Positions 21,811 to 49,118 of a DNA stretch of 64,000 nucleotides are shown piece by piece (the stretch's first letter is position 1; the number at the start of each line of letters is the position of its first letter). Location: NCBI GenBank assembly GCA_050950765.1, contig JBMNIF010000002.1:1056001-1120000 (forward strand), written 5' to 3'. The notes under the pieces were generated by a model, which was not told where the DNA came from, did not search any database, and saw only the letters and a program-made list of their open reading frames with translations. This DNA is from Bdellovibrionota bacterium. Its GTDB lineage: Bacteria > Bdellovibrionota_C > UBA2361 > JAAYZI01. Position numbers and translations under genes: made by a program.

Positions 21811-21852
21811 CGTTTGTGTGTTGATTTTTAATCGTCCCGTTTGGGGGGTGTT

Positions 21853-22323
21853 ATGACAAGAAAGAAAAGAGATTTTTCCCGTCCGATTCTTCCGGATCCT
21901 AAGTATGGCGACACTGTTTTAGCTAAGGCTATGAATGTTATTATGCGTGATGGCAAGAAAAGTGTTGCTGAGAAAGCGCTCTATAATGCGTTAGAGATTA
22001 TGCAGAGTAAGTTAAAAGCGGATCCGTTGGAGAGTTTTAGAAAGGCGCTCTCTAATATTGAGCCTGTGGTTGAGGTGCGCTCTCGTCGTGTTGGTGGTGC
22101 TACTTATCAGGTGCCGACGGAGGTTAGCGCAAAACGTGGGCAGGCTTTAGCTTTGAGGTGGCTTGTTAAATATGCCAATGCTCGTAGTGAGCGTACCCTC
22201 GCAGAGAGACTTTCTGGAGAGTTAATGGACGCTTTGCAAGGACGTGGTGCTTGTGTGAAGAAGAGGGAGGATACCCATAGAATGGCAGAAGCCAACAAGG
22301 CGTTTGCACATTTCCGTTGGTAA
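21853..22323 (+). CDS. rpsG: 30S ribosomal protein S7
   Basis: [23 protein letters not shown]. Confidence 0.99.
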
Positions 22324-22470
22324 TTTTTTTACTCAGCTCGATTTCCTTTTTTTGTTGATAACGTTGCAAAGTGTGGAAATGTGATTGCTGTGATGTTTTG
22401 AATGGCAGATCTTAATGGTGGAGATCTGTAAAATGACACTGAATTATATCTTTCAGTGGGTGAGGTAAAA

Positions 22471-24570
22471 GTGGCGAAAGTAAACCTTGAAAGGGTACGA
22501 AATATCGGAATTATGGCGCATATTGATGCGGGTAAGACAACTACGACCGAGCGTATCCTTTTTTATACCGGTGTTAATTACAAAGTTGGCGAAACCCATG
22601 AGGGTGCGGCTACTATGGATTTCATGGAGTTGGAGCAGGAGAGGGGGATTACTATCGCTTCTGCTGCTACTACGTGTGAGTGGAGAGGCTCTTATGCTGA
22701 CCGTCCTGCGCATAAGATTAATATTATTGATACACCAGGTCACGTTGATTTTACGATTGAAGTTGAAAGAAGCCTTAGAGTCCTAGATGGTGCTGTGGCT
22801 GTCTTTGATGCTGTTTCTGGAGTTGAGCCCCAGTCTGAAACGGTCTGGAGGCAAGCTAATAAGTTTAATGTTCCTAGGATCTGTTTTATCAATAAGATGG
22901 ATCGTGTCGGGGCTGATTTTGATAAGTGTTATGAGTCGATCTGTTCAAGGCTACATGCAGAGGCTCTACCAATTCAAATTCCGATCGGTGCTGAAGCCAA
23001 CTTCCAAGGGGTTATCGATCTAGTTCAGATGAAGGCCATCGTTTTTGTTGAAGGGACGATGGGATCGAAGTTTAATGTGGAAGATATTCCAGCTGATTTA
23101 AAAGAGAAGGCTGAAAAGGCTAGAGAGCATATGCTGGAGGGCTTGGCTGATACTGATGAAGGTATCATGGAGAAGTATCTGCAAGGTGATGAACTTTCCA
23201 GTGCCGAGATAATTGCTGCTATTCGTAAAGCCACTGTGGAGATGAAGATCTTCCCGATGCTTTGTGGAACTGCTTTTAAGAACAAGGGTGTGCAACCTTT
23301 GTTGGATGCTATTATAGATTTTCTTCCATCCCCGTTAGATGTTCCAGCGGTGAAGGGTTATCCGATGGATAGCAAGGAGGGTGAAGAGCCTTCTATTGAG
23401 AGAAAAGCCAGTGATAGTGAGCCGTTTTCTGCCTTAGCGTTTAAGATAGTTACAGATCCGTACGTCGGTGTTCTGACCTTCTTCCGTGTTTATTCTGGAA
23501 AAATTGCAGCTGGTGCCACTGTTTTGAACTCTACTAGAGATAGTAAAGAGCGTTTCGGTCGTATCCTTAGGATACATGCGGATAAACGTGAAGAGATTAA
23601 AGAGCTCTCTACCGGTGATATCGGTGCGGCAGTGGGCTTAAAGGAAGTTGTGACAGGTGATACCTTGTGTGATCCTGCGAATCCTGTTGTCTTTGAAAGT
23701 ATATTTGCTCCGGAGCCTGTTATTAGTGTGGCGATGGAAGCTAAAACGAAATCTGACGCAGATAAACTTACAACTGCCCTGTTAAAGTTAACTAAGGAAG
23801 ATCCGTCATTAAAATTTAAGTCCGATGAAGAGACAGGGCAACTCGTGGTTTCTGGCATGGGTGAGCTGCATCTCGATATTATTAGACAACGTCTACTACG
23901 TGAGTTTGGTGTTGATTGTACCGTAGGCAAGCCGCAGGTAGCTTACAGAGAAACTGTTAAAACTAAGATTGAACATCAACTTAAATACGCCAAACAATCT
24001 GGTGGTCGTGGACAATATGCTGAGGTTTATTTACGTGTTGAGCCGCTGGGACGTGGTGGTGGATTCGAGTTTGTTGATGAGATTAAAGGTGGGGTGGTTC
24101 CTAAAGAGTATATCGGACCTACGAAGGCCGGTGTTGAGGACGCTTTGAAGAGCGGTGCTCTTGCAGGATTCCCCGTAATTGATGTAAAAGTGACGCTTTA
24201 TTTCGGTAGTTTTCATGAAGTTGACTCTAGCGAGATGGCGTTTAGGATTTGTGGTTCTATGTGCTTCAAGGAAGCGTGTCGTAAGGCTGGTATGGAGCTA
24301 CTTGAACCGATTATGTCGTTGGAAGTTGTTTCTCCTGATGAATTCGTTAGTAACGTTGTCGGAGATCTCAATAGAAGGCGTGCAAGAATTTTAGGCATGT
24401 CAGCACGTGGAGGTGCACAGGCTATCAAGGCAAGTGTTCCACTGTCTGAGATGTTCGGTTATGCCACGGACTTGCGCTCGAGCTCTCAAGGTCGAGCAAT
24501 GTTTACCATGGAGTATGACCATTACGATGTGGTGCCTGCGCAGATTGCTGAAGGGATTACTACTAAGTAG
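22471..24570 (+). CDS. fusA: Elongation factor G
   Basis: [30 protein letters not shown]. Confidence 0.99.
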
Positions 24571-24663
24571 TAACCTTCCATTCCTGTGTTGGCTATCAGT
24601 TGAAAGGAGTTAATTTTACTATCTCGGATTTTTTTGTCCGAGTTACACAAAACGGAGCGTATT

Positions 24664-25860
24664 ATGGGTAAGCAAAAGTTTGAGCGTACAAAAGCTCATG
24701 TAAACGTCGGTACTATTGGCCACGTCGATCATGGTAAAACCACATTGACGGCAGCTATTCTTCAAGTGCAAGCAAAGAAAGGGCTTGCTACCGTGAAGAG
24801 CTATGCAGATATTGCAAAAGGCGGAACAGTACGTGACGATTCTAAAACAGTAACAATTCACAGTGCACACGTTGAGTATGAGACTCAAGCTCGTCACTAT
24901 GCACACGTTGACTGCCCAGGTCATGCTGACTACGTCAAAAACATGATTACCGGTGCAGCACAGATGGATGGTGCTATTCTTGTTGTTAGTGCAGCTGATG
25001 GTCCTATGCCACAGACTCGTGAGCACATCCTTCTCGCCAGACAGGTTAATGTACCTAAGATCGTAGTCTTCCTTAATAAGGTTGATATCGTTGACGATCC
25101 TGAATTACTTGATCTCGTTGAAATGGAAGTCATTGAGCTCCTTAATGAGTATGACTATCCAGGTGATGAGACTCCTATTATTCGTGGTAGTGCCTTGAAG
25201 GCATTGCAAGGAGAGGATAGTGAGGTTGGCGTTCAATCTATCGGAAAATTGATGGATGCTATTGATACCTATATTCCAGAGCCGACTCGCGATATCGATA
25301 AACCTTTCCTTTGCCCGATTGAAGATGTGTTCTCAATCGAAGGTCGTGGTACCGTTGCAACAGGTCGTATCGAGCGCGGTATTGTGAAGGTTGGTGATGA
25401 GATCGAGATCGTTGGTATTAAAGATACCACCAAGACGGTTGTAACGGGTGTAGAGATGTTTAATAAGACCCTTGATCAAGGTCAAGCTGGTGATAACGTT
25501 GGTCTTCTTCTCCGTGGTGTTAAGAGACAAGAGGTCGAGCGTGGTCAAGTTATTGCTAAGAAGGGTTCTATTATGCCTCATAAGAAATTCAAAGGTGAGG
25601 CTTACGTCTTGAAGAAAGAAGAGGGTGGTCGTCACAAACCTTTCTTCCCAGGATACCGTCCGCAGTTCTATTTCAGAACAACTGACGTAACCGGTTCTAT
25701 TAAGCTTCCAGAGGGTGTGGAGATGGCTATGCCAGGTGATCACGTTAATTTGGAAGTTGAACTTCATCAGCCGATCGCTCTTGAGCAAGGTGTGAGGTTC
25801 GCTGTTCGTGAAGGTGGCAAAACAGTAGGTTCTGGTATTGTTACCGAGATAATTGAATAG
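24664..25860 (+). CDS. tuf: Elongation factor Tu (divergent switch I)
   Basis: [32 protein letters not shown]. Confidence 0.99.
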
Positions 25861-25923: not shown

Positions 25924-26241
25924 ATGATAGGCGGCGGGCAGTTAATTCGTATTCGGTTAAGGGGTTATGATCATAAGCTGCTGGACTCTGCGGTGGCAGA
26001 GATAATTTTGGCAGTGCGTCGTACTGGTGGTAAGGTGGCAGGACCTATTCCGCTACCCACTAGAACCGAAAGGTATACAGTAAATCGTTCAACCTTTGTT
26101 GATAAAAAATCGCGCGAGCAGTTTGAGATGAGGACGCATAAACGTCTTTTGGATATTCTCGAGCCAACGCAGCAAACCATCGATGAACTTGGTAAGCTTG
26201 AGCTTTCCACCGGCGTTGATGTTGAGATTAAGCTGGAATAG
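25924..26241 (+). CDS. rpsJ: 30S ribosomal protein S10
   Basis: [21 protein letters not shown]. Confidence 0.98.
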
Positions 26242-26291: not shown

Positions 26292-26969
26292 ATGAGTTCA
26301 AAAAGACTATATCCCGAGGGTCTCTTAGGGAAAAAATTAGGAATGACGCACGTCACTGACGATGAAGGTAAGTGCATCCCTGTCACAGTAGTGGAGGTCG
26401 GTCCATGTTACGTTCTCGCTGTGCGTAGTCAAGAGAGCAATGGATATTCTGCTGTTCAATTAGGTTTTGGCAGCAAGAAACAGCAACGTGTAAATAAAGC
26501 TGCAATGGGGCATTTTGCGAAAGCAGGAAGGGGTGCCTTCTACCACGTTAATGAGATCCGTTGTGATGTTGAGAAGCTTGGCTGGAAGGATCTTGGGCAA
26601 GAGATTCGCGTTGCTGAGGTGTTTAACGAAGGTGAGTTAGTTGATATCACAGGTACCAGTATCGGACGAGGCTTCGCTGGTGTTGTGAAGAGACACGGTA
26701 TGAAAGGACAACCTGCCACTAGAGGTACCCATGAGTATCGTAGACATTCGGGTGCTGTTGGTTGTAGAAAAGATCCAGGTCGTGTGATTCCAGGGCATCC
26801 TATGGCTGGACAGAAAGGTAATGAGACCGTGACAGTTCAAAACCTTAAGGTCATTGCAGTTAGACCTGAAGAGAACCTTATATTGGTTCGTGGAGGAATT
26901 CCAGGATCCAAAGGTGGTCTTGTGACGGTTCGTAAGGCCGTTAAAGGTTATGGAGTTAAGGCGGCGTAG
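26292..26969 (+). CDS. rplC: 50S ribosomal protein L3
   Basis: [25 protein letters not shown]. Confidence 0.98.
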
Positions 26970-27000: not shown

Positions 27001-27642
27001 GTGAGTGAGTTAAATTATCAGATACTGGATGCTAAAGGACAGGATGTCGGCTCCCTTGAGCTTAATCCTGATGTGTTCGGAGCTCCTATCCATCAAGATT
27101 CTGTGCATTTTGTTGTGCGTCAACAGTTGGCAGCACGGAGAGCGGGGACACACTCTGCTCTGGCGCGTTCTGATATGAAGGGAGGCGGAAAAAAACCTTT
27201 TAAACAGAAAGGAACAGGGCATGCTAGACAAGGCTCTAGGATATCTCCATTGAATCCAGGTGGCGCTATATTGTTTGGACCTTCTCCCCGTGATTATACC
27301 TTTAAGGTTCCTAGAAATGTCAGAAGAAAGGCTTTAGCGGCTGCGCTTTCTGATAAAGTTTTACAAGGGAACTTGAGGATAGTATCAGAGCTTCAGATCG
27401 AGTCTGGTAAGACTAAGGATATGAAAGCTTTTCTTGAAACAATAGGTGTGCAGGGGAAGGTCTTGGTTGTGCTTTCTAAAGAAGAGGCTGGAGCTGAGAA
27501 AGTTCGTCGGGCGGCTAATAATCTGCCGAACGTTGTAACATTACCGCCGGAGGGAGTTAATGTTTATGATCTTCTGAAAGCTAAGTTCTTGGTTGGAACG
27601 AAGACAGCTATTGAGGCTATTGAAGCTAGATTCCAAGCTTAG
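27001..27642 (+). CDS. rplD: 50S ribosomal protein L4
   Basis: GGGKKPFKQKGTGHARQGS. Confidence 0.98.
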   Translation: MSELNYQILDAKGQDVGSLELNPDVFGAPIHQDSVHFVVRQQLAARRAGTHSALARSDMKGGGKKPFKQKGTGHARQGSRISPLNPGGAILFGPSPRDYTFKVPRNVRRKALAAALSDKVLQGNLRIVSELQIESGKTKDMKAFLETIGVQGKVLVVLSKEEAGAEKVRRAANNLPNVVTLPPEGVNVYDLLKAKFLVGTKTAIEAIEARFQA

Positions 27643-42844: not shown

Positions 42845-44365
<1,521 letters not shown>

Positions 44366-45051
44366 TAAGGAGAGATGCGAAGATGTATTGACGAGAGTCG
44401 ATGTATTTTTGCACGCCCTAAGATATGCAAGAGGTTCAATTTGTGAATGACGATGGAGTCAATTTACTCTGAAGTGTGAATGAAGAGATCTCTTTGATCA
44501 CCTGCTACGCGAGTTGGCACGAGAGTTTTTGTTTAGATGGTGAGAGTTACAGTTTCTATCGATATCCGTTAGGGGGTATAACAATTAGGTAAGAGTAGAA
44601 GTGGTGATACTGCGTGTTGACCTTGTGGGAGTCGATGAGTCGGCTTTAGCGAGAGTTAACAACGAGGGCGAAAACACTATCAAGGTATTTTTTCGACCTG
44701 ATTCGGAATTTTTTCGAATAGTGCTTTAAGAAAAAAGTGCTTTAGGAAAAGTACATGATTTGGAGCTGTAAAAAGTTTTTCCGAGTCGGTATTTTTTCGA
44801 CGGGTGCATAAGGAAAAAAGTACGTAAGGAAAAAAATGTCTGATAGAGTTTTTAAGAAATGTAAAAAAGTTAAATGTAAACTAAATAATTGAAAGCCTGT
44901 TTATATGTTTTTTTTAGAACGTATGAACGGAGAAAGATTTCATTGAACCAATAGTAGAGTTTTTGCCGTTAATTATTTAGCGGTGAAGATTATGAATTTT
45001 CTCGAGCGCGACGAGTTCAGAGTAATCTGGAATCGGAGCTCATAAGATATC

Positions 45052-48175
<3,124 letters not shown>

Positions 48176-48581
48176 TTTCTTTTCTTTTTTTAATTTAATT
48201 TAAAGAGGGAAGAATGAGTAAGATAATATAATGAGCGAAGATTGGTATTATGACTGATGATACCGTGCTGTGTTAATGTTTCACCTTTTAGAGGTTGGAA
48301 CGAGAGTAGCAAACGCAGTCACGTTATCAGCAGACATGTACTGCTAATCGCGTTCGAGAAAGTTTATAATGTAATGATGCTATTGGTAATGTTATTACGA
48401 GATAGTTTATGAAAGATAGTTTATGAAATATTTTATAGGATAATTTATTTATAAGATAATTATAAGGTACGTTTCTTAAGAGAGAGTTTTTGTTTTTGTT
48501 AGCAGTATCACAACTTTTACCTTGTTGTTTATTATTAGGTTATTTAAGGGGCTAGTTAGTTAGAGGCTAATTAAGCTAGGT

Positions 48582-49050
48582 AGAAAGTCACTGCGAAAGT
48601 AAGTGCACAGGAACTAGATACGTAGAGTGTGTATTTACTTTCTTGGTGACTATAGTGGAGAGGCGTTCCCATCCCGCAGGTTGTCTGCTATGTCAACTTG
48701 GCAGAGCCAAGATTGACATGACGCGCAAGGTGTTCGGGATGAGGTTTTGGTAGTTGGCAGGTTAGTTAAGAAAGTCACTGCGAAAGTAAGTGCACAAACT
48801 AGATACATAGAGGTGTATTTACTTTCTTGGTGACTATAGTGGAGAGGCGTTCCCATCCCGCAGGTTGTCTGCTATGTCAACTTGGCAGAGGCCAAGATTG
48901 ACATGACGCGCAGGTGTTCGGGATGAGGTTTTGGTAGTTGGCAGGTTAGTAAGAAAGTCACTGCGAAAGTAAGTGCACAAACTAGATACATAGAGGTGTA
49001 TTTACTTTCATGGTGACTATAGTGGAGAGGTTCCACCCGTTCCCATCCCG
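48582..49050 (+). repeat. ~185 bp tandem repeat (2.5 copies) containing 5S rRNA 5' fragments
   Basis: Units start at 48582, 48769 and 48952 (AGAAAGTCACTGCG); the third runs into the intact 5S. Confidence 0.92.
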
Positions 49051-49118
49051 AACACGGTCGTTAAGCTCTCCTACGCCGATGATACTGGAACTACCGGGAA
49101 AGTAGGAAATTGCCAAGA
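49008..49118 (+). rRNA. rrf: 5S rRNA
   Basis: CCCATCCCGAACACGG, GCCGATGATAC, GGAAAGTAGG; ends pair as helix I. Confidence 0.96.

Follow-up and report, generated by a model that had tools for sequence, protein, structure and literature searches.

Background

The elongation factor EF-Tu is a textbook case of a protein that is too conserved and too connected for remodelling or exchange, and its switch I region couples GTP hydrolysis to the delivery of tRNA. Here we describe the tuf gene (encoding EF-Tu) on a stretch of 64,000 nucleotides, hereafter the window (positions 1,056,001 to 1,120,000 of contig JBMNIF010000002.1, assembly GCA_050950765.1, from a bacterium labelled Bdellovibrionota). The gene (24664..25860, + strand, 398 amino acids plus stop) specifies an EF-Tu with a non-canonical switch I loop (residues 47-65; 24802..24858, + strand, frame 1), and the similarities and distribution of this loop differ from those of the rest of the protein. 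We put the probability at roughly 0.55 that this goes back to an old event in which a patch covering switch I was replaced in a single-copy EF-Tu of otherwise vertical descent. A unique 11-residue motif in planctomycete EF-Tu was reportedly described by Jenkins and Fuerst in 2001 (J Mol Evol 52:405), and the short form of the loop, as present in the window, was found in 20 of the 26 tuf genes read from a sample of Planctomycetota. If that description is rightly reported, the motif can no longer be called unique to planctomycetes, because 122 of 201 genomes of a Verrucomicrobiota-labelled phylum have the loop and it is fixed in an order labelled Bdellovibrionota or Oligoflexia.

The closest described system is the canonical bacterial EF-Tu (TIGR00485; solved structures 1dg1/1efc and 1b23/1ttt). 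The window protein resembles it in its full-length match, its three domains and its motifs, and the locus does so in the order fusA-tuf-rpsJ and in the presence of EF-Ts in the genome; the difference is that the canonical loop is two residues shorter and ends in RGITI. A passage of PMC4342817 names the switch I glycine as a ligand of a monovalent cation in translational GTPases, and this glycine is a threonine in the window EF-Tu. According to a passage of PMC3014915, the Lit protease of the Lit/Gol phage exclusion system cleaves EF-Tu at Gly59-Ile60, within RGITI; the cleaved Gly-Ile dipeptide reads Thr-Val in the window EF-Tu. Nothing ties the window organism to a Lit-type protease, and the system is mentioned only as an example of an agent that targets switch I. 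Homologous recombination within tuf is established as well, through the homogenisation of tufA and tufB (also in a passage of PMC4342817). The mechanism is the one that we propose for the window loop, but in the cases described so far entire paralogs of one genome are homogenised, whereas the window case would concern a short internal tract, apparently exchanged across phyla, with the remainder of the gene left native. No paper of the searchable literature had the strings of the short loop or ASESQGRRD, and in the literature on planctomycete EF-Tu signatures and on transfer or recombination of tuf switch I we found nothing describing the loop outside the planctomycetes. What seems to be new here is that the history of the loop is decoupled from that of the rest of the EF-Tu gene, as judged from the sequences.

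Results and discussion

The switch I loop of the window EF-Tu

The translation of the loop is exactly as given in an earlier note on the window, which had pointed to a non-canonical switch I at this place, and the opposite strand carries unrelated sequence. Canonical EF-Tus of the same GTDB class read DQIDNAPEERERGITI at this position. The window loop, which according to alignments is two residues longer than the loop of solved EF-Tus, differs from the canonical one at almost every position, with only the final Thr-Ile of RGITI retained. The ending KTVTI (residues 61-65; 24844..24858, + strand) replaces RGITI: T64 aligns with the canonical switch I threonine, which is kept, the Gly-Ile pair has become Thr-Val, and both the acidic APEE stretch and the Arg-Gly of RGITI are lost. 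The canonical G2/switch I consensus D-x-A-P-E-E-[KR]-x-R-G-I-T-I does not fit the window loop, and the TIGR00485 score is unaffected by this. The loop segment matches 58 solved EF-Tu sequences, every one of them canonical (three alignments were inspected; full-length matches put 61 query residues on 59).

The window loop fits a short design, [DE]-[IV]-[AT]-K-G-G-x-x-R-[DSG]-x-x-K-x-x-T-I, two residues longer than the canonical one, and 12 of its positions (A51, K52, G53, G54, T55, V56, R57, D58, K61, T62, T64 and I65) show no variation across 32 loop-sharing proteins. The short loops of different phyla have about 11 non-canonical residues and the identical two-residue length change in common, and those closest to the window loop are found in Verrucomicrobiota (identity of 81% with the window loop and as much as 88% with loops of its order). 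A second, long design, AKASESQGRRDxTKILTI, is five residues longer and comes back almost unchanged in Planctomycetota and Verrucomicrobiota, in four genomes of an alphaproteobacterial order, and in two Bdellovibrionota as well as two lineages of the window's class. Among the approximately 225 tuf loci that were read, no intermediate between the canonical and the alternative loops was found.

In all other respects the gene is an ordinary housekeeping tuf, and its interest lies in the loop and in the patchy, body-independent distribution of that loop. The protein scores 691.1 bits against the equivalog model TIGR00485 (cut-off 522.4), the next family that is not EF-Tu being EF-1 alpha with 228 bits, which is below the cut-off of that family. 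The three Pfam domains PF00009, PF03144 and PF03143 (GTPase domain, domain 2 and domain 3, respectively) and the nucleotide-binding motifs G1 (P-loop), G3 (DCPGH), G4 (NKVD) and G5 (SAL) are all present. The earlier note had suggested looking for a second, canonical tuf; none turned up in the genome (2,644,825 bases in 5 contigs, 94% complete), in which the five remaining matches are other translational GTPases with 29-36% identity. The change in switch I is specific to EF-Tu, because EF-G, LepA and TypA of the same genome retain E[RK]GITI. The window EF-Tu should run a normal EF-Tu cycle and deliver aminoacyl-tRNA, since it is encoded by the sole tuf gene, has intact nucleotide-binding motifs and retains T64 and the preceding hydrophobic V63. 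An AlphaFold2 model built with the 32 loop-sharing sequences shows a confident fold (mean predicted local distance difference test score (pLDDT) of 83.8, predicted template modelling score of 0.81); the conformation of the loop is not readable from this model because residues 47-67 have a pLDDT below 50.

A further observation concerns the serine of the G5 motif SAL (residue 176; 25189-25191), which is conserved in 31 of 31 EF-Tus with a canonical loop and replaced, mostly by alanine, in 19 of 60 with an alternative loop, including all four long-loop alphaproteobacterial ones. The window EF-Tu keeps the serine. The pattern may reflect coupling between switch I and G5, but the sequences are related and not independent.

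Distribution of the loop

In the GTDB-based kinship scheme the window's phylum holds 124 species genomes, all of one class. The loop was searched for with a degenerate DNA pattern for the shared core R-D-x-x-K-x-x-T-[IV]-x-x-x-H-x-E-Y. Matches are not due to chance, because the pattern recovered all 73 non-canonical loci then at hand and no canonical ones, and a reversed control pattern gave zero matches in any scanned genome. A match was found in 80 of the 124 genomes, often on contigs of more than 100 kb. These are 77 of the 91 genomes of the window's own order (families f1-f21, with the NCBI labels Bdellovibrionota and Oligoflexia), both genomes of family f22, which belongs to another order, and one of the two genomes of family f30; the other 29 genomes of the class gave no match. 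In the 14 genomes of the order without a match, tuf was not found or was cut at the N-terminus.

Loci were collected from 29 relatives, and of the 27 that could be read 26 have the short form and one the long form (of the other two, L097 is non-canonical by the pattern and L115 is truncated). Nine tuf genes from eight genomes of the same class (families f27, f28, f33, f34 and f36) read DQIDNAPEE[RK]ERGITI or a close variant. Both alternative designs occur in family f21, the short one in genus g28 and the long one, KVAAADETAGRRDATKIITI, in genus g22, where it lies on contigs of 183 and 92 kb. Family f30 carries the long loop, a case (G050) that rests on a 4.7-kb contig of a metagenome-assembled genome (MAG) that is 71% complete. 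The distribution of the pattern, taken together with the canonical loops of the class-mates, indicates that the alternative loop of the window's order is old, lineage-wide and derived within the class. The nearest named relative (82% identity) is a MAG labelled Bdellovibrionota, and loop-sharing proteins carry the database labels 'Oligoflexia bacterium' and 'Pseudomonadota/Proteobacteria bacterium'.

We also observed that the loop of the two f22 EF-Tus, EIAKGG[IV]ERDPTKTLTV, ends in TV and not in TI. In loop-free trees these proteins nest within the window's order, beside family f10 (97/96 and 98/96), while the taxonomy has f22 in a separate order and its EF-G is not so nested in the EF-G tree. 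Either EF-Tu moved between the orders, or one of the two positions is distorted by rapid evolution in these small genomes (1.2-1.8 Mb).

Outside the window's phylum the distributions are those of samples, and 'not found' holds for the genomes searched. In the Planctomycetota sample (the phylum of a Planctomycetaceae-labelled genome) the pattern was found in 57 of 121 genomes, 113 of which have tuf. From the best 30 loci 26 were read, giving, besides the 20 short forms mentioned above, five long ones (AKASE.QGRRD.TKI.TI) and one canonical one, and the remaining four matched the pattern. Among 20 planctomycete tuf genes that were read and did not match, 13 are canonical and seven belong to further subtypes, with RS or RG replacing RD. 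Over residues 30-90 the window protein shares 82% identity with one named for Thermostilla marina, a cultured planctomycete. The sampled Verrucomicrobiota-labelled phylum (that of L060) has long as well as short forms. The pattern was found in 4 of 201 genomes of a Hyphomicrobium-labelled order (that of G128), all with the long form and two with two copies, and in 2 of 201 genomes of Bdellovibrionota proper (the phylum of the canonical Bdellovibrionales sequence L064), again with the long form. The alternative loop thus appears to be a widespread but patchy trait of the PVC bacteria (Planctomycetota, Verrucomicrobiota) with few outposts elsewhere, and the window's order is the largest outpost outside the PVC bacteria that was found in the genomes sampled. 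The earlier note had called the loop planctomycete-like; this stands as far as the short form is common in that phylum, but PVC-like is the better word, given its frequency in the Verrucomicrobiota-labelled phylum and the fact that the closest loops are found there.

Some genomes of the Planctomycetota sample hold a second, much more divergent tuf with 57-66% identity (L188, L191 and L192; G183, G207 and G198). These genes have degenerate alternative loops, for instance AGRHGVIRSDSKIITV and TAGGVRRDKNKTVTIHLSHAEY, and may be specialised or decaying copies. In three MAGs with an alternative loop we found a canonical tuf on a contig of 2-3 kb (L128 on G001:C214, L189 on G124:C424 and L190 on G219:C67). 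This is most likely bin contamination and calls for caution when 'second copies' are counted in MAGs. One match of the Planctomycetota sample (L139 on G219:C33) has an in-frame TAG inside tuf.

Similarity and phylogeny inside and outside the loop

The similarities of the window EF-Tu differ between parts of the gene. The minimal mosaic patch, the part with a history that differs from the rest of the gene, comprises residues 30-68 (24751..24867, + strand). In the remainder of the window protein, identity is 77-78% with the canonical class-mates, its closest matches there, and 71-72% with PVC proteins. For the window's order as a whole, identity outside the loop is highest with class-mates (77.8%), followed by other canonical EF-Tus (73.6%), Verrucomicrobiota (72.1%) and Planctomycetota (71.1%). 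Within the loop it is 41% with class-mates, against 60% with Planctomycetota and 60.5% with Verrucomicrobiota, the maxima for these two being 84% and 88%, respectively. In six taxon-matched pairs of a non-canonical and a canonical EF-Tu, identity is 79-93% over residues 1-29, drops to 28-40% over residues 30-68 and is 76-84% over residues 69-398. Over its full length the window protein is 57-73% identical to Planctomycetota, not more than to canonical proteobacterial EF-Tus (67-73%). Signature sites (two specific for planctomycetes, six for the class and four separating canonical from planctomycete EF-Tus) are too few to decide; at three of the last four the window's order has the canonical state. 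An exchanged tract reaching residue 111 is unsupported, as no consistent pattern was seen there. Nor was co-variation evident outside the loop, where 44 of 355 columns differ in at least five of seven pairs and the only consistent substitution is that of S to A at residue 176.

The patch is flanked on both sides by coding sequence that ranks among the most conserved known. Upstream lies the canonical P-loop GHVDHGKT (residues 19-26; 24718..24741, + strand), of which G19, H20, D22, H23, G24, K25 and T26 are invariant in the 32 loop-sharing proteins, and downstream a near-invariant stretch (residues 69-108; 24868..24987, + strand) that is a plausible recombination anchor.

The phylogenies changed with the loop columns. 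A quick maximum likelihood tree based on all columns separated canonical from non-canonical EF-Tus with a support of 97 in the Shimodaira-Hasegawa-like approximate likelihood ratio test (SH-aLRT), and this split was gone once the 47 loop columns were dropped. The quick loop-free tree itself was discarded as a poor optimum, a constrained tree that joined the window's order to Planctomycetota being 22 log-likelihood units (lnL) better.

A careful tree of 60 sequences, including canonical Planctomycetota, was made with the loop columns removed (LG+C20+F+G4 with posterior mean site frequencies). In this tree the window's class is one clade (ultrafast bootstrap (UFBoot) 87, SH-aLRT 71) that is present in 90% of 200 bootstrap trees. 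The long-loop alphaproteobacterial sequence L063 falls within the Alphaproteobacteria (100/98), the body of the long-loop f30 EF-Tu groups with canonical class-mates (91/86), short and long loops of family f21 sit on one body lineage, and the Planctomycetota clade (100/98) mixes 6 canonical with 15 non-canonical sequences. The tree was extended to 76 sequences by adding 14 from the Verrucomicrobiota sample, one alphaproteobacterial and two from Bdellovibrionota, again with the loop columns removed. Here the window's order, the canonical class-mates, f30 and one myxobacterium form a group (94/94) that excludes a Planctomycetota clade (91/86) as well as two clades of Verrucomicrobiota (100/99 and 100/100), and the bodies of the long-loop L063 and ALF_197 lie inside the Alphaproteobacteria (100/99). 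On this tree the loop state needs at least 11 changes. The body tree is rejected by the loop columns (delta lnL 665, p = 0.0008 in the approximately unbiased (AU) test) and the loop tree by the body columns (delta lnL 1550, p-AU 0.0002). The myxobacterium in the group is Archangium gephyra (L052), which has a canonical EF-Tu; a quick tree made before had joined it to an f27 sequence (94).

The neighbouring fusA gene (encoding EF-G; 22456..24570, + strand), with the canonical switch I EQERGITI, served as a control for vertical descent. In a tree of 37 EF-G sequences all those of the window's class are on one side of a branch with support 100 that separates them from other phyla; the EF-G of f30 lies within the canonical class-mates (100) and that of L063 within the Alphaproteobacteria. 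The remark in the earlier note that the neighbouring genes do not look planctomycete holds. Its author had looked to a tree congruent with taxonomy and a motif shared with sister groups as evidence against a horizontal origin; the loop-free tree does agree with the taxonomy, but the nearest outgroup orders are without the motif.

Origin of the loop

These results suggest that the switch I loop was replaced by the short design at or before the base of the window's order. The main reservoir of the donor loop would be the PVC bacteria, a direction that we infer from prevalence only. The likely route would be homologous recombination of a short tract that spans codons 30-68 or more (about 117 bases), with the near-invariant codons on either side, those of the P-loop upstream and of HVEY...DCPGHADY downstream, as anchors, and the outcome would be a mosaic gene with a native body in its native str-operon position. 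The same process may have taken place independently in the small group of the alphaproteobacterial order, in f30, within f21 and inside the PVC phyla. L063/ALF_197 and f30 are independent mosaics in which the loop was able to move without the body.

Several points weigh against a patch replacement. The body of EF-Tu holds little deep signal. With 47 sequences (LG+F+G4, loop removed), trees that join the window's order to Planctomycetota (-12033.8) or to its class-mates (-12030.6) differ by 3.2 lnL and neither is rejected (p-AU 0.42 and 0.47, respectively). In the 76-sequence set the exact clade of the window's class is present in just 18% of the bootstrap trees, because the myxobacterial sequence intrudes, and the bootstraps are not fully settled (correlation 0.966-0.969). 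A constraint joining the window's order to 21 Planctomycetota is 13.0 lnL worse and one joining it to eight short-loop Verrucomicrobiota 24.7 lnL worse, and neither is rejected (p-AU 0.245 and 0.143, respectively). The loop tree of the reciprocal test was inferred from the loop columns themselves, which favours that tree, and the species tree consists of GTDB kinship codes and one neighbouring gene (EF-G, with a tree that holds no PVC taxa). A per-site likelihood profile of the two rival topologies gave no clean breakpoint, the differences being scattered (e.g. -32 over columns 151-205 but +13 over columns 251-300); at the DNA level no breakpoint was mapped, the event being too old for that. 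Finally, faster evolution of the PVC proteins can bias the identity comparisons.

For these reasons an exchange of the entire gene, in which the ancestor of the order swapped its tuf in situ for a short-loop tuf of PVC origin and later divergence erased the donor signal outside the loop, is a live minority option, although we think it unlikely. Besides the failure of the AU test to reject either PVC grouping, the early quick analysis, with its 22 lnL in favour of the constrained tree over the free one, and the branch with SH-aLRT 97 in the all-column tree, which puts the non-canonical EF-Tus on one side, would fit such an exchange. Yet that branch vanishes without the loop columns, the best careful trees join the body to the class-mates, with constrained trees 13-25 lnL worse, and the identity of the body to PVC proteins is no higher than that of any canonical EF-Tu (70.8-72.2%) and below that to class-mates. 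At three of the four discriminating sites the order has the canonical state. The gene is also in its native position: loci of the window's class retain rpsG-fusA-tuf-rpsJ, and four PVC-labelled loci with wide flanks have neither fusA nor rpsJ beside tuf. With clear mosaics in Alphaproteobacteria and f30, a swap of the whole gene is moreover not needed. The earlier note had proposed a horizontal replacement of a core gene in its native position; the native place in the str operon is borne out, but the trait is fixed in the order and in f22 and is not specific to this genome, and replacement of the whole gene is not the best reading.

Convergence, which the earlier note had named as its alternative, would mean that the same loop arose separately in the window's lineage and in PVC bacteria under a shared functional constraint. 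The constraint on the loop within lineages is indeed strong, as its 12 invariant positions show, and no donor tract is demonstrable at the DNA level. We nevertheless regard convergence as improbable, because what recurs across phyla, almost to the letter, is a pair of different multi-residue designs that each have a length change of their own; the absence of intermediates among the loci read points the same way. Equally improbable in our view is ancient paralogy, by which two tuf copies with different loops had their bodies homogenised by gene conversion and lineages kept one copy or the other. Many bacteria do have two tuf copies homogenised by gene conversion (a passage of PMC4342817), and two copies are present in several sampled Planctomycetota and in a Hyphomicrobium-labelled genome. 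However, the duplicates that were examined share one loop type (G128, G231, G198, G183 and G069), and the polymorphism would have to persist since before the split of several phyla. Paralog sorting is further disfavoured because both kinds of tuf, canonical and non-canonical, were never found on well-assembled contigs of one sampled genome; in the only genomes with both (G124, G219 and G001) the canonical copy is on a contig of 2-3 kb, probably by contamination. An assembly chimera or a contaminated bin, finally, is very hard to believe. Although tuf is a classic site of chimeric joins in metagenome assemblies and the f30 case lies on a short contig of an incomplete MAG, the window belongs to a genome of five contigs, the loop is present in most genomes of the phylum, many times on long contigs, and both flanks of the loop are native-like, which is not expected from a single chimeric join.

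If an ancient patch replacement is indeed the explanation, the canonical loop would not be the only workable solution, because entire orders and a large share of two phyla have a fully different loop as their fixed state. Should the loop move as a patch, phylogenies built from EF-Tu alone would be locally chimeric, and arguments from signature indels in this region (e.g. the 'planctomycete-specific' motif) would be unsafe. The window EF-Tu would also be a testable candidate for selection on the effector loop of a core translation factor, for instance for escape from proteases that cut RGITI. A bolder version, which we put forward as a speculation with the odds well against it, is that switch I, which ranks among the most conserved segments of any protein, exists as at least three interchangeable cassettes (canonical, short and long) that repeatedly cross phyla by recombination between the invariant flanks and are kept polymorphic by agents attacking the canonical loop (Lit-type proteases, kinases and other modifying toxins). 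If true, this would be an arms-race polymorphism at the core of the translation machinery.

Gene context and additional observations

The gene order around the window tuf is rpsG-fusA-tuf-rpsJ-rplC-rplD, with rpsG (encoding S7; 21841..22323, + strand) upstream and rpsJ (encoding S10; 25924..26241, + strand), rplC (26292-26969) and rplD (27001-27642) downstream. The start of tuf was taken as the ATG at 24664 on the basis of alignments to solved EF-Tus; the list of open reading frames had it begin at a TTG at 24634. EF-Ts is encoded in the genome as a short form of 218 amino acids (L227, G000:C1:204249-204893), which matches the tsf model only at positions 1-94 and 175-291, with about 80 central positions missing.

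A complete rRNA operon (42845-49118) with genes for 16S (42845-44365), 23S (45053-48176) and 5S rRNA (49009-49118) follows immediately after the ribosomal-protein cluster and shares its strand. The GC skew, taken in windows of 4 kb, is strongly positive on the + strand (0.22-0.32) between 8001 and 48000 and drops to 0.02-0.17 past approximately 48 kb; the region of high skew coincides with the block of co-oriented, highly expressed genes.

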